64,000 bases of DNA from Escherichia coli (GTDB lineage Bacteria > Pseudomonadota > Gammaproteobacteria > Enterobacterales > Enterobacteriaceae). The stretch lies in the NCBI RefSeq assembly GCF_003334255.1, contig NZ_QOWU01000002.1. One strand, written 5' to 3'. Below the pieces are notes generated by a model. The model was not told where the DNA came from. It did no database searches and saw only the letters and a program-made list of their open reading frames with translations. Both the position numbers and the translations under genes were made by a program. This document shows, piece after piece, positions 3,005 to 38,997 of this stretch. Each line of letters starts with the position of its first letter. Within the stretch, counting starts at the first letter, position 1.

Positions 3005-4819
3005 TTAGTTCATCCATACCGTAGCCGAAATGGCAGGCAAAGCCAGAATCCCGTCAGTCAGTTGCCCATGCCCTTCTTTGCATTGCCATTGCACGGCATT
3101 GAGAAACGGTGACGCGGGTAGCACCACTTCACAGGCCTCGCCACGGTTGATTGCCACCAGTACACGTTGCTGATTCAGCACGCGGACAAATACCACCACG
3201 TTATCTTCCGCATACAGCACCTGACAGCCGCCATGACGTAGCGCCTGACTTTTCTTACGCAGCGCAATCATTCGCTGGTACAGCGCGAATAACGCCGTAT
3301 CCTGCTTTTCCACCTGCCAGGGGAACGGTTTACGGCAAAACGGATCGTTTTTGCCATCCAGTCCTACTTCATCACCGTAATAAATGCACGGTACACCAGG
3401 CCAGGTGAACAGCCAGACCACCGCCAGCGGCAGGCGCGCAATATCCCGACCGAGCAGCGTTTTAAATCGCGCAGTATCGTGGCTGTCGAGCTGATTAAAC
3501 ATACGTAATTGTTGTTGATGAGAAAGCCCTGCGCGGTAATTATCCATCCAGGCCATACAGGTTTGGGCATCAATTTGCTGCGGATCGTAAGAGATATCGG
3601 TATTGGCAAGAAATCCCCACAACGGGAATGTGAAGCCACGATAGTTCATGGCGGCATCTTCCACATCGGCCTGTAACCATTGCCGTGCATCGCCAAAATG
3701 TTCGCCGACAATATACGCTTCCGGCTGGGTTTCTTTCGCCGCTTCGGTGATCCCGGCAACGTGCTGCATATTATTGCGCGCCCCACCCGCCTCCCCCAGC
3801 ATATGCACCACATCCAGCCGCCAGCCGTCCATATTCCACGGCGCTTTCAGCCAGTGGCGGACAATACTGTCTTCCCCGCGATAAATTTCATTCACCAGAC
3901 TTTCCGACTGATAATCCAGCTTCGGCAAGCTGGCATAGCCAAGCCAGTCGAGCGCCGTGCCATCATCACTAAACGAGTACCAGTCGCGCCAGGGCGATTC
4001 GGGGTTGTGACAAGCACCACCCGTGCCACGATTATGCCTGTCAAACCAGGCATGGGAATCGCCACTGTGGTTAAACACGCCGTCCAGCACCAGCCGCATT
4101 CCCAGCTGCTGCGTATTGTGTCGCAAACGCAGCAACGCCCCATCACCGCCAAACTGCGGATCGACATGGCGATAATCCTCGGTATCGTATTTATGTACGC
4201 TGGGAGCTTTAAACACCGGATTGAGATACAGCGCTGTCACGCCAAGCTTTTTCAGATACGGCAGTTTTTCGCTTATCCCGTCCAGATCGCCGCCATAGAA
4301 CGTTGATCCGCCCGCCTGCGCCGTGACCGGTTCATCCCAGTCACGCAAGATGATCTCTTGTCCGGCTGCATGATGGTAATAGACATGATCCTGTTCAGCT
4401 TCACGAGGAAGACTACGCGCAAAACGATCAGGGAAGATCTGATAAAAAATCTGATCCGCAGCCCATTGTGGGCCGATATCCGGTACATCGACGGCAAACT
4501 GCTCCAGTCGTGCCGGCGGCATTCGGCTGAAGCCCTGCGGTGTAAACCAACGCTGGCGATCGTGCCACAGCAGTTTGAAACTGTAACGCCGCCGGGGTTG
4601 TCCGCTGGAGAGATCAATCGCCGCACGCCATGCGGTGACGCCAGGCTGCGGCTGACTGCGCTGCTTATGCATCGGTACTGACATTTCTTCGTTATCGTGT
4701 TCTGTACGCAGCATAATGCGCTGCGGTGGGTCTTCGCCCGTCAGCCACAGTGTAATGAGCAGTTGATCTTTGCTTTGTTTAACAAATGGGGGCACCGGCA
4801 GGTGCCATGCATTTAACAT
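3005..4819 (-). CDS. malZ: Maltodextrin glucosidase
   Basis: ORF of 605 aa beginning [18 protein letters not shown]; glycoside hydrolase family 13 features; start taken at the second ATG (604 aa), the first ATG at 4822 is also possible. Confidence 0.93.
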
Positions 4820-4977: not shown

Positions 4978-6351
4978 TTACTGGTTTTCAGCCAGCTGAC
5001 GATCGTGGCGGCGTTTAAACATCCAGCCAATCAACAGCACAACAATCCACGCGAAACCGACATACAGCGAGATACGCGTATCCGGGTGATAACCAATCAA
5101 CCCGATAATAAAGAGCAGGAAAATCAGCCCGCCGATGGTCGTTGCTACCCCACCCGGCACTTTAAATTTCAGCGCCTTAACTTCTTCTGGCGGCAAACGG
5201 CGACGGAAGGCAATTTGCGACAGCAGGATCATAATCCACACCCACACCGTGGCGAAGGTTGCCAGCGAAGCGATCACCAGGAAGACGTTTTCCGGCATGA
5301 TGTAGTTCAGATACACCGCAAACAGCAGCGCGGTAGTCATCACCAGCACCGTAACCCACGGAATACCGCGACGCGACGTTTTGCTGAAAATTTTCGGCGC
5401 GCTGCCCTGCTCTGCCATACCGTGGAGCATACGGCCTACGCCAAATACATCACTGTTAATTGCCGACAGCGAAGCAGTCAGCACAACAAAGTTAAGAATG
5501 CTGGCGGCAAAGGTAATGCCCATATGCTGGAACGTCAGCACGAACGGGCTACCGGCAGTGCCAACCTGATTCCACGGGTAGATAGACATAATGACGAACA
5601 GCGTACCGACGTAGAACACCAGAATACGCATCGGCACGGAGTTAATCGCACGCGGTATCGATTTCTCAGGATCTTTCGCTTCACCGGCGGTAATCCCGAT
5701 AATTTCGATCCCACCGTAAGCAAACATCACCATTTGCAACGACATTACCATGCCAAGCCAGCCGTTACTGAAGAAGCCGCCGTTGCTCCACAGGTTATGA
5801 ATACCGGTCGGTTGCCCGCCGTTGCCAATCCCCCAGATGATGATGCCGAAACCGGCGACAATCATGATGATGATGGTGGCGACTTTAAAGAACGAGAACC
5901 AGAATTCCAGCTCACCGAATACCTTCACGCTCATCAGGTTTACGGCGCAAATGATCAGCACCACGCTCAGTACCCAAATCCAGTGCGGCACCGTCGGGAA
6001 CCAGACACCCATATAGATACCAAAAGCGGTCACATCGGCGATGGCGACAATAAGGATTTCAAAGCAGTAGGTCCAGCCGGTAATGTAACCTGCCAGCGGG
6101 CCGAGGTTTTCCTGCGCATAACGCGAGAAAGAGCTGGCGGCCGGGTTATGTACCGACATTTCCCCCAGCGCACGCATAATGATATACGCCGCGATACCAC
6201 CGATAATATAGGCCAACAACACGCTCGGACCGGCCATTTTGATGGCGTCTGCCGAACCGTAAAACAGCCCGGTGCCAATTGCTGAACCCAGTGCCATAAA
6301 GCGTATGTGGCGGGTACTTAGCCCACGCTTTAGCTTGTTCTTACTTTCCAT
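4978..6351 (-). CDS. proY: Proline-specific permease (APC family amino acid transporter)
   Basis: Track ORF begins at TTG 6354; ATG one codon downstream gives 457 aa, [30 protein letters not shown]. Confidence 0.94.
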
Positions 6352-35717: not shown

Positions 35718-36240
35718 TTGTCATCCCTCCTCAGGGACGTAATAAGTTGATCCATCAATTATCAATGCATAGAAAACATATTATGTTTCGCGCTAACGAT
35801 TATGCTGCGTTACAGACGAATGGTTCAATTATTCTTTCCCCTAAGTCCGAATGTGGACATATATAATTTATGGAGAAAAACACGCATCAAATTCATAAAA
35901 GCACAGTATTTCAACATATTGCAGATAATTTTGTTTTTGAAGCATACGCATAATAAATATCACAAACACAAACCAGATAAATATCCTATGAATATGCAAC
36001 AAAGTTTTAATTATTCAATTTATAGCAGCGCAACCAAACTCCAAAAAATAATAACCAACAGCTATAAATAAAGATTAAAAATATTTTCAGTGAATATAAA
36101 ATTATTGCTGTTTCTATTAAAAAGATGTCCTGGCCTCTCTTCCATTCTCTTCTTGTCAACATCGCGACAACTTTCGTAAAACATCCCTACCCTGCTTCAG
36201 GTATACTATGCCCCTCGATTCCACAAACATCAGGCAGACC

Positions 36241-37215
36241 ATGACAGACTTAATCCAACGCCCTCGTCGCCTGCGCAAATCTCCTGCGCTGCGCGCTATG
36301 TTTGAAGAGACAACACTTAGCCTTAACGACCTGGTGTTGCCGATCTTTGTTGAAGAAGAAATTGACGACTACAAAGCCGTTGAAGCCATGCCAGGCGTGA
36401 TGCGCATTCCAGAGAAACATCTGGCACGCGAAATTGAACGCATCGCCAACGCCGGTATTCGTTCCGTGATGACTTTTGGCATCTCTCACCATACCGATGA
36501 AACCGGCAGCGATGCCTGGCGGGAAGATGGACTGGTGGCGCGTATGTCGCGCATCTGCAAGCAGACCGTGCCAGAAATGATCGTTATGTCAGACACCTGC
36601 TTCTGTGAATACACTTCTCACGGTCACTGCGGTGTGCTGTGCGAGCATGGCGTCGACAACGACGCGACTCTGGAAAATTTAGGCAAGCAAGCCGTGGTTG
36701 CAGCTGCTGCAGGTGCAGACTTCATCGCCCCTTCCGCCGCGATGGACGGCCAGGTACAGGCGATTCGTCAGGCGCTGGACGCTGCGGGATTTAAAGATAC
36801 GGCGATTATGTCGTATTCGACCAAGTTCGCCTCCTCCTTTTATGGCCCGTTCCGTGAAGCTGCCGGAAGCGCATTAAAAGGCGACCGCAAAAGCTATCAG
36901 ATGAACCCAATGAACCGTCGTGAGGCGATTCGTGAATCACTGCTGGATGAAGCCCAGGGCGCAGACTGCCTGATGGTTAAACCTGCTGGAGCGTACCTCG
37001 ACATCGTGCGTGAGCTGCGTGAACGTACTGAATTGCCGATTGGCGCGTATCAGGTGAGCGGTGAGTATGCGATGATTAAGTTCGCCGCGCTGGCGGGTGC
37101 TATAGATGAAGAGAAAGTCGTGCTCGAAAGCTTAGGTTCGATTAAGCGTGCGGGTGCGGATCTGATTTTCAGCTACTTTGCGCTGGATTTGGCTGAGAAG
37201 AAGATTCTGCGTTAA
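36241..37215 (+). CDS. hemB: Porphobilinogen synthase (delta-aminolevulinic acid dehydratase)
   Basis: ATG at 36241 gives 324 aa, [37 protein letters not shown]. Confidence 0.95.
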
Positions 37216-37262
37216 TTTTGTTTCCTCTCAGAAAGGGGGAGTTAACCTGTTGAAAGTACGGT

Positions 37263-37310
37263 GAACGCCCCCTCACCCTAACCCTCTCCCCAAGGGGGCG
37301 AGGGGACCGT
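37263..37310. repeat. GC-rich imperfect palindromic element between convergent hemB and tauD
   Basis: CGCCCCCTCACCCTAACCCTCTCCCCAAGGGGGCGAGGGGACC; arms CCTCTCCCC/GGGGCGAGG can pair; no flanking T-run. Confidence 0.4.
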
Positions 37311-37321
37311 CCACTCTCGTA

Positions 37322-38173
37322 TTACCCCGCCCGATAAAACGGTTTATCCCCAAGGATCGTCGCCCGATGCATTATCCGTCGCTGTGGCAGGTAATCGGCA
37401 TTGGCATAGTGCTGGGTCACGCGGTTATCCCAAATCGCAATATCATTTGGTTGCCAGCGCCAGCGCACCTGAAACTCCGGTTTGGTGATATGGGCAAACA
37501 AAAAACTTAACAAGGCTTCGCTCTCTTTCTCGCTCACATCAACAATTCGCGTAGTAAAGCCTTCATTCACAAACAGCGCCTGTTTACCGCTCACCGGATG
37601 CGTTCGCACCACCGGATGTAGCAACGGCGGGTTTTTCGCGACCGCCTCGCGCCAGCGTTGATGTTCCTCCTCGGTTTTGCGGTATTTGTATTCCGGGAAC
37701 GATTTACGGAAATCATGCTCCGCACGCAGCCCACTCAGCAGCTGGCGGAAGGGAACAGAGAGCGCCTCATAGGCCGCAATACCGCTGGTCCAGAGCGTAT
37801 CACCGCCGGTCGAAGGTAACTCTTTAGCTGCCAGAATCGCCCCTGCGGGTGGCGTTTCAATAAATGTCACATCGGTATGCCAGTTGTCGTTATCTGGCGG
37901 ATTATCGTTATGGGTATCCAGCACGATGATCTCGTCAACCCCTTCGGCATGCGGGTAAACAGGGTGAATATGCAATTCGCCAAAACGCTGGGCCAGCGCG
38001 CGTTGCTGCTGCGGCGTAATAGCTTGATCGCGTAGAAACACCACCTGATGGCGCAGCACCGCATGGTAAAGCTGTTCAAACTGATTATCGCTTAACGGGC
38101 GCGTCAGGTCGGCACCCGAAATTTGTGCGCCGATATACGGCCCCAGCGGGGTAATGCTCAGACGTTCACTCAT
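37322..38173 (-). CDS. tauD: Taurine dioxygenase (Fe(II)/2-oxoglutarate dependent)
   Basis: 283-aa [38 protein letters not shown]. Confidence 0.96.
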
Positions 38174-38997
38174 TGTACTTCTCCATGCCAGGGCGTCAGG
38201 CGGCGCTGTAACGCGCGCAGACCCAGTTCTAAAAGAAAGGCGATAATCGCAATCACCGCGATCCCCGCCAGCACCACGTCAGTTGCGAGAAATTCACCCG
38301 CTGACTGAACCATAAATCCTAAACCGCGCGTCGCGGCAATCAGCTCCGCCGCCACCAGCGTAGACCAGCCCACCCCCAGACCAATACGTAATCCGGTGAG
38401 GATTTCCGGCAGCGCACCGGGCAAAATGACAAACCACAGCACCTGCGCACGGCTGGCACCCAGCGACTGGGCGGCACGAATGCGAACCTGCTGCACGCTT
38501 TTCACCCCCGCCAGCGCCGACATCGCCACCGGTGCAAAAATCGCTAAATAGATCAGTAAGATCTTCGAGGTTTCACCAATACCAAACCAGATCACCATCA
38601 GCGGCAAATAAGCCAGCGGCGGCACCGGACGATAAAGCTCGATTATCGGATCCAGAATGCCGCGTACCGTAGGGCTAAGTCCCATCGCGATCCCGACCGG
38701 AATACCGAACAACACCGCTGCAAATAGCGCCAGCATAATGCGCGTCAGACTGGCTGCCAGATGCTGCCACAGCGTGGCGTCCATAAAGCCTTGCGGTCCG
38801 GCAATGGTGAGTAGTTTTTCCAGTACCTGTTGCGGCGGCGGCAAAAATAGCGGGCTAATCAGTTGCAGCGTCGCCACCGTCCACCATACGGTGAGTAAAA
38901 CCGCTAACGTGCCAATGCTTAAGGTCACCTGACGCGAGAGCGGCCAGCGCCATTTCAGCCGCCGCGAATGCAGTTTTTCATTAATGAGCACACTCAT
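38170..38997 (-). CDS. tauC: Taurine ABC transporter permease
   Basis: 275-aa [26 protein letters not shown]; 4-bp overlaps with tauB and tauD. Confidence 0.95.

Follow-up and report, generated by a model that had tools for sequence, protein, structure and literature searches.

A GC-rich palindrome between the convergent hemB and tauD genes of Escherichia coli, identified as a BoxC/PIT/TMECO repeat and most likely a passenger at this locus

Introduction

The convergent genes hemB and tauD of Escherichia coli, whose stop codons lie at 37213-37215 (plus strand) and 37322-37324 (minus strand), are separated by a spacer of 106 bp. All positions refer to the window, that is, the whole stretch of 64,000 nucleotides analysed here. 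Within the spacer, at 37268-37310, stands the string CGCCCCCTCACCCTAACCCTCTCCCCAAGGGGGCGAGGGGACC, a palindrome of a C-tract and a G-tract. The original prediction, which was made from the letters alone, had placed such a palindrome between these two genes, and the string was found there. It had further proposed that the palindrome is either a member of a small intergenic repeat family or a bidirectional RNA-stabilising structure. The locus thus raises the question of what this element is, and whether it serves the expression of hemB or tauD.

The spacer is identical to positions 388,647-388,752 of E. coli K-12 MG1655 (NC_000913.3) in reverse orientation, and window position x converts to MG1655 position 425968 - x. 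The hemB reading frame at 36208-37215 (plus strand) has 335 codons when counted from its first ATG, compared with 324 aa and a start at 36241 in the RefSeq annotation; this discrepancy is ordinary start-codon ambiguity.

Identity of the element

A 36-nt segment of the minus strand, CCCTCGCCCCCTTGGGGAGAGGGTTAGGGTGAGGGG, was identical in every base to the type A mm repeat TMECO no. 5, for which Table 1 of Holder et al. 2015 (PMC4666352) gives the position MG1655 388,664-388,699. We confirmed these coordinates against NC_000913.3. According to the same paper, TMECO is identical to BoxC (Bergler et al. 1992) and PIT (Hoyne, Edwards, Viari & Maher 2000), and its consensus is 5'-CCCTCNCCC N3-6 GGGNGAGGG N3 GGGNGAGGG[G/T/C/-]-3'. 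In the window, this consensus had one exact match (37270-37304, minus strand), and the 31-nt core likewise matched once. For each of the two, 0 matches were expected from 100 shuffles, and no further copy of either was found within the 64 kb. The element is intergenic, as TMECO always are. When it was compared with BoxC/PIT/TMECO, the core, the coordinates, the intergenic position, the flank, and the dispersed multi-copy spread were the same, and no difference was left. As judged from its sequence, the element is, beyond reasonable doubt, copy no. 5 of the BoxC/PIT/TMECO repeats of E. coli K-12.

A genome-wide search for similar palindromes had been suggested together with the original prediction. 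In K-12, all 18 loci of Table 1 of PMC4666352 were fetched, and all 23 copies were recovered from them. Loop 2 of the element, TTA, is shared by 15 of the 23 copies, and its bases at the three variable positions (G, A, T) form the commonest combination in K-12 (14/23 copies). BLAST with the spacer against 5,426 complete E. coli genomes found similar copies in all of them, at a median of 17-18 places per genome (range, 1-34), and the places retrieved with the spacer were BoxC copies. The small intergenic repeat family that had been proposed therefore exists. It was already described, in 1992, 2000, and 2015, and as one of its listed copies, the element matters little as a finding. No later work on TMECO or PIT was found in the literature after Holder et al. 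2015. In the parts of that paper that were read, we found described neither the allele counts of this locus among the 5,426 genomes nor the published Rho region downstream of the element, both of which are given below.

Some strains had 1-5 BoxC-like places and others had approximately 30; among the strains listed, the hemB-tauD copy was absent from those with few copies. Strain-to-strain differences in copy number were also reported by Holder et al. 2015 (PMC4666352).

Structure of the repeat unit

The core consists of three blocks that are separated by two loops and followed by a final base (Table 1). The label mm denotes a mismatch: the G at position 6 of block 1 stands opposite an A of block 2. 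In the triplex model of Holder et al. 2015 (PMC4666352), block 1 pairs with block 2, and block 3 is the third strand. In the predicted RNA hairpin, block 1 instead has block 3 as its partner, because the G of block 1 forms a G-T/G-U wobble there.

Outside the core, the flank ..ACGGTC ahead of it is common to 10 single type-A copies of K-12, including this one, and G-A-A follows the core in most of these ten. Since the flank is common to other copies, the real unit extends beyond the 36-nt core to ca. 50-56 bp, the length that is given for BoxC (~50-56 bp; PMC2267715). By BLAST, other genomic copies align to approximately 37268-37321 of the window, and the unit comes within 1 nt of the tauD stop codon. 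The interval 37216-37321 of the original prediction is thus correct as the spacer, while the repeated unit is narrower, with its core at 37269-37304 and the whole unit at approximately 37266-37321.

Table 1 Features of the hemB-tauD locus in window coordinates.
Feature	Position	Strand	Basis
hemB (porphobilinogen synthase), 324 aa as annotated	36241..37215	+	ORFs, RefSeq annotation
hemB-tauD convergent intergenic spacer, 106 bp, K-12-type allele	37216..37321	.	ORFs and RefSeq annotation of NC_000913.3
Upstream G-block GGGGGAG, complementary to the outer C-block of the element, 26 nt before the core	37235..37241	+	pairing in the plus-strand fold
Whole BoxC repeat unit, ~53-56 bp (core and shared flank; left boundary approximate)	37266..37321	-	alignments of other genomic copies
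TMECO/PIT core, 36 nt, CCCTCGCCCCCTTGGGGAGAGGGTTAGGGTGAGGGG, type A mm, copy no. 5	37269..37304	-	match to consensus and published table
Final base G	37269	-	sequence
Block 3, second G-rich arm GGGTGAGGG	37270..37278	-	third strand in triplex model; partner of block 1 in predicted RNA hairpin
Loop 2, TTA, defining type A	37279..37281	-	sequence, K-12 copies
Block 2, first G-rich arm GGGAGAGGG	37282..37290	-	sequence; Watson-Crick partner of block 1 in triplex model
Loop 1, CCTTG	37291..37295	-	sequence
Block 1, C-rich arm CCCTCGCCC	37296..37304	-	sequence
Conserved BoxC flank TACGAGAGTGGACGGTC, with one copy of the direct repeat GGGGACCGTCC	37305..37321	-	comparison of copies
tauD (taurine dioxygenase)	37322..38173	-	ORFs, RefSeq annotation
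Peak of Rho-dependent termination region, hemB strand (MG1655 388,499, minus)	~37469	+	Adams et al. 2021, Supplementary file 2

Alleles of the spacer and local instability

Three alleles of the hemB-tauD spacer occurred among the 5,426 E. coli genomes. The 106-nt form of K-12 was found in approximately 3,370 genomes, and a 157/158-nt form, which is the K-12 form with an additional 51 bp, in 229. The third allele, found in 1,819 genomes (e.g., ATCC 25922), has only 39 nt, TGATCATTATGCCGGGTTATCCAACCCGGCATTTCCCCC, contains no BoxC, and shows no similarity to the K-12 spacer. It forms a perfect 10-bp hairpin (z = -4.0 and -3.4) that is followed by only three T, and it fails the terminator scan. 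In the long form, a direct repeat of GGGGACCGTCC, the sequence with which the BoxC unit ends, flanks the extra 51 bp, and the K-12 form consequently looks like a deletion between the repeat copies.

A comparable pattern was observed at the BoxC locus between adk and hemH. The K-12 form was present there in 2,913 genomes, and the other genomes examined had a BoxC-free spacer of 131 nt with a different inverted repeat. The alleles diverge from just past the adk stop codon, indicating the same kind of block replacement. When filled and empty alleles were compared, no target-site duplication or clean empty site was found at hemB-tauD or adk-hemH; at both loci, the alleles differ over the full spacer, beginning directly behind the stop codon, and for this reason no insertion footprint is readable. 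Holder et al. 2015 (PMC4666352) reported "intergenic changes" in 39% of comparisons of TMECO loci versus <1% of controls. The polymorphism at hemB-tauD fits this reported local instability around TMECO repeats.

Distribution of the motif and possible recognition of the element

We scanned one genome per species for the motif, and at least 120 stretches carried it. The matches listed lie outside Enterobacteriaceae and indicate phylogenetic breadth, not abundance. Among them, the motif was multi-copy in Polaromonas, Archangium, a verrucomicrobial MAG, Hyphomicrobiales, Candidatus Contendobacter, Armatimonadetes, and others, and the copies from distant phyla had nearly the same 33-36-nt motif, often in inverted pairs. 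This is consistent with the wide distribution reported in 2015 (Holder et al., PMC4666352). A motif that is almost unchanged across distant phyla is hard to explain by neutral drift, which suggests some conserved constraint or recognition.

In the MAG GL140_5, a longer repeat surrounds the motif; its flanks are of two fixed types, and a small extra hairpin follows each of them. One stretch, for example, has the motif at 4565-4625 and 5835-5900, and many copies lie at contig ends. A neighbouring ORF of 181 aa is NUDIX-like by eye.

These observations bear on the possibility that BoxC is mobile, as a miniature element, or is bound by a conserved protein, in which case recognition, and not folding alone, would hold its sequence constant. 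The copies within a genome are near-identical with the flank included, their number varies strongly between strains (from 1 to 34 places), individual loci are polymorphic for presence and absence, and the motif is multi-copy in several phyla, in one MAG inside the longer repeat with its fixed flanks. All of this speaks for such an element. It is opposed by the missing target-site duplication and clean empty site at both loci examined, and no transposase adjoined the copies of MAG GL140_5 that were examined. Holder et al. 2015 (PMC4666352) found the repeat not to be linked to transposons, phages, or plasmids, and no protein that binds it is known. We therefore regard this explanation as unlikely.

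A bolder reading joins recognition to transcription: BoxC would be recognised by a conserved machine or mobilising enzyme and would replace 3'-end hairpins, and at hemB-like loci termination would shift to Rho, for which the C-rich face of the element would serve in loading. It arises because the three-block motif is near-unchanged across phyla and sits where other strains have a plain hairpin right behind the stop codon. We consider this combination quite improbable.

Folding of the two strands

The original prediction had described a GC-rich hairpin. The 52-nt RNA of the G-rich, tauD-sense strand folded at -33.1 kcal/mol (z = -3.72), and none of 200 shuffles was as stable; this hairpin begins 17 nt past the tauD stop codon. 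In contrast, the 52-nt RNA around the element on the C-rich, hemB-sense strand reached -19.9 kcal/mol (z = -0.74), as well as composition alone does, and in a separate calculation the hemB-sense fold was likewise on par with shuffles (z = -0.41). Therefore, the described hairpin is confirmed, but it is non-random on one strand only, the G-rich one. A search of 36000-38500 against Rfam gave noise only: the best matches over the element scored 17.5 and 14.1 bits (E = 2.8-8.6), where the gathering scores are 40 and 38.

The G-rich strand also reads GGGG-AGA-GGG-TTA-GGG-TGA-GGGG, a formal four-tract G-quadruplex motif, and the C-rich strand is the i-motif counterpart. The element resembles G-quadruplex/i-motif sequences in this respect and is unlike G-quadruplex sequences in that its adjacent C-block competes. 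In G-quadruplex-aware folding, the predicted RNA hairpin was more stable than the quadruplex; because the same calculation for DNA mixes parameter sets, no conclusion was drawn from the DNA result.

For DNA, Holder et al. 2015 (PMC4666352) provide direct measurements. By NMR, a TMECO oligonucleotide formed a triplex and not a quadruplex. The isolated G-rich strand in vitro is reported to form a very stable hairpin that is extended to an intramolecular purine-motif triplex, and CD and NMR of type A mm oligonucleotides gave a triplex Tm of 74 +/- 1 C. Polymerase arrest and triplex formation in vitro are likewise published there for TMECO. In contrast, neither the duplex form nor footprinting in vivo gave a stable triplex.

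Transcript ends and termination at the locus

No hairpin followed by a T-run was found in the spacer on either strand when 36900-37700 was scanned for terminators. The tails after the palindrome are GTCCACTC on the plus strand and GCGTTCAC on the minus strand, and neither has a T-run, in agreement with the original prediction that this is not a classic intrinsic terminator. A promoter scan found no promoter-like site in the spacer. The element resembles intrinsic terminators, including bidirectional ones, in being a GC-rich hairpin between convergent genes; unlike them, it lacks a U-tract on both strands, and no 3' end is mapped to it.

The transcript ends were taken from Adams et al. 2021 (PMC7815308), who mapped RNA 3' ends of MG1655 in LB at two densities and in M63-glucose. 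In these Term-seq tables, which are thresholded, no 3' end is assigned to hemB. None is assigned to tauD either, whose operon is repressed in both of these media. Under the three growth conditions, no coordinate falls within MG1655 388,640-388,759. Of 12 other BoxC-adjoining genes that were checked, 11 have no 3' end in the same tables; the exception, fabI, has one at 1,350,208, away from the element.

Supplementary file 2 of the same study contains a Rho-dependent termination region on the hemB strand (Table 1), with a Rho score of 3.8 and p = 2e-9 in bicyclomycin data. Coverage was 86 upstream and 33 downstream without bicyclomycin and 146 and 213 with it. The peak lies inside antisense tauD, ca. 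165 nt past the core, at a coarse resolution (800-nt windows). Because no 3' end is mapped at the element and the Rho region lies downstream, it seems that transcription of hemB continues across the element until Rho terminates it beyond. The original prediction had named two findings that together would count against it, an element unique in the genome and transcripts that end elsewhere; the hemB-strand transcripts do end elsewhere, and the element is not unique.

With these data, the bidirectional RNA-stabilising structure of the original prediction found no support. In such a role, the hairpin in the 3' UTR would stop RNA polymerase in both directions or block 3'-to-5' exonucleases and would thereby stabilise the mRNA of hemB and/or tauD, as REP sequences do. 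What speaks for it is the strong and non-random tauD-sense hairpin, together with the position of the K-12 loci, of which 8 have convergent neighbours, 8 co-directional ones, and 2 divergent ones, so that 16 of the 18 are downstream of at least one gene. Furthermore, the BoxC-free strains hold another perfect 10-bp hairpin (z about -4), suggesting that a hairpin of some kind is kept in the spacer. Against this stand the missing T-run on both strands, the hemB-sense fold that is no better than shuffles, the Term-seq tables, which have no 3' end in the spacer or for hemB or tauD in three growth conditions and none at the element for the BoxC-adjoining genes checked, and the Rho-dependent termination downstream. 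Moreover, Hoyne & Maher 2002, as cited in PMC4666352, observed neither promoter nor terminator activity and saw RNA polymerase unaffected. A dedicated role at the RNA level is thus very unlikely.

Equally doubtful is the idea that the C-rich, G-poor tract of the hemB-sense RNA, CCCCCUCACCCUAACCCUCUCCCC, is bound by Rho as part of a terminator that replaced an older hairpin: the Rho peak does lie downstream on the hemB strand, the C/G ratio of that strand peaks over the element (2.08 at 37270-37329, approximately the 96th percentile of the window), as does its count of YC dinucleotides, and Rho regions also lie downstream of five more BoxC copies (tldD->aaeR, tusA->zntA, adk->hemH, antisense yihS, and fimH->gntP), but of the six transcribed faces, three are C-rich and three are G-rich, which gives the idea no support from orientation, Rho regions behind convergent genes are common genome-wide in data resolved to ca. 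800 nt, and the predicted fold has one of the C-blocks in a pairing.

Discussion

At this locus, the element is best regarded as a passenger repeat: it most likely serves neither hemB nor tauD expression in any dedicated way. Taken as a whole, the explanation that it is BoxC/PIT/TMECO copy no. 5, that it is a passenger, and that its effect is mainly on the DNA itself, where it makes the spacer unstable, is in our judgement highly probable. According to this explanation, transcription of hemB would pass through the element and would be stopped by Rho further downstream. The main effect would arise at the DNA level, where the G-rich strand may fold whenever the strands are transiently single during replication, repair, or transcription. 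The short repeats that the element brings with it may misalign, and folding and misalignment together would promote small deletions and replacements of the spacer.

The passenger and instability parts of this explanation rest partly on absence: the Term-seq tables apply a threshold, and in both LB and M63-glucose the tau operon is kept repressed. The tauD-sense hairpin, which is beyond chance and starts shortly after the stop codon, counts against a mere passenger, as does the near-constancy of the motif in distant phyla, and a function at 3' ends would also predict the 16 of 18 loci that lie downstream of a gene. The variability of the spacer may reflect gain and loss of the element rather than instability caused by it. 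In addition, Holder et al. 2015 (PMC4666352) saw no triplex footprint in vivo, which counts against the DNA-folding part.

Among other known repeats, REP/BIME (PU) sequences come closest in kind to the element. Both are short, GC-rich, imperfect palindromes that are dispersed and extragenic, lie mostly at the 3' ends of genes, often occur in inverted pairs, and vary between strains. Unlike REP, which has two arms, the element has three blocks, and its sequence is unrelated: by eye, 37216-37321 has no palindrome of the REP-type consensus. For REPs, mRNA-stabilising effects and protein partners are documented. In contrast, no role of this kind is known for BoxC.

The three natural spacers between the same two genes (without BoxC, with BoxC, and with BoxC and a further 51 bp) constitute a small natural experiment. 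These alleles allow direct tests of the effect of the element on mRNA ends, on Rho termination, and on the local mutation rate.

BoxC copies also occur as inverted pairs, of which K-12 has five. These pairs share a common longer composite structure, in which the outer flanks and the spacer are conserved. At hemB-tauD, the plus-strand sequence TTTCCTCTCAGAAAGGGGGAG (37216-37245), which holds the G-block GGGGGAG, sits 26 nt ahead of the core. This G-block is possibly a relic of an inverted partner copy, to which its sequence similarity is weak, and the gap of 26 nt equals the spacer length in some of the inverted A+B pairs of BoxC in K-12.
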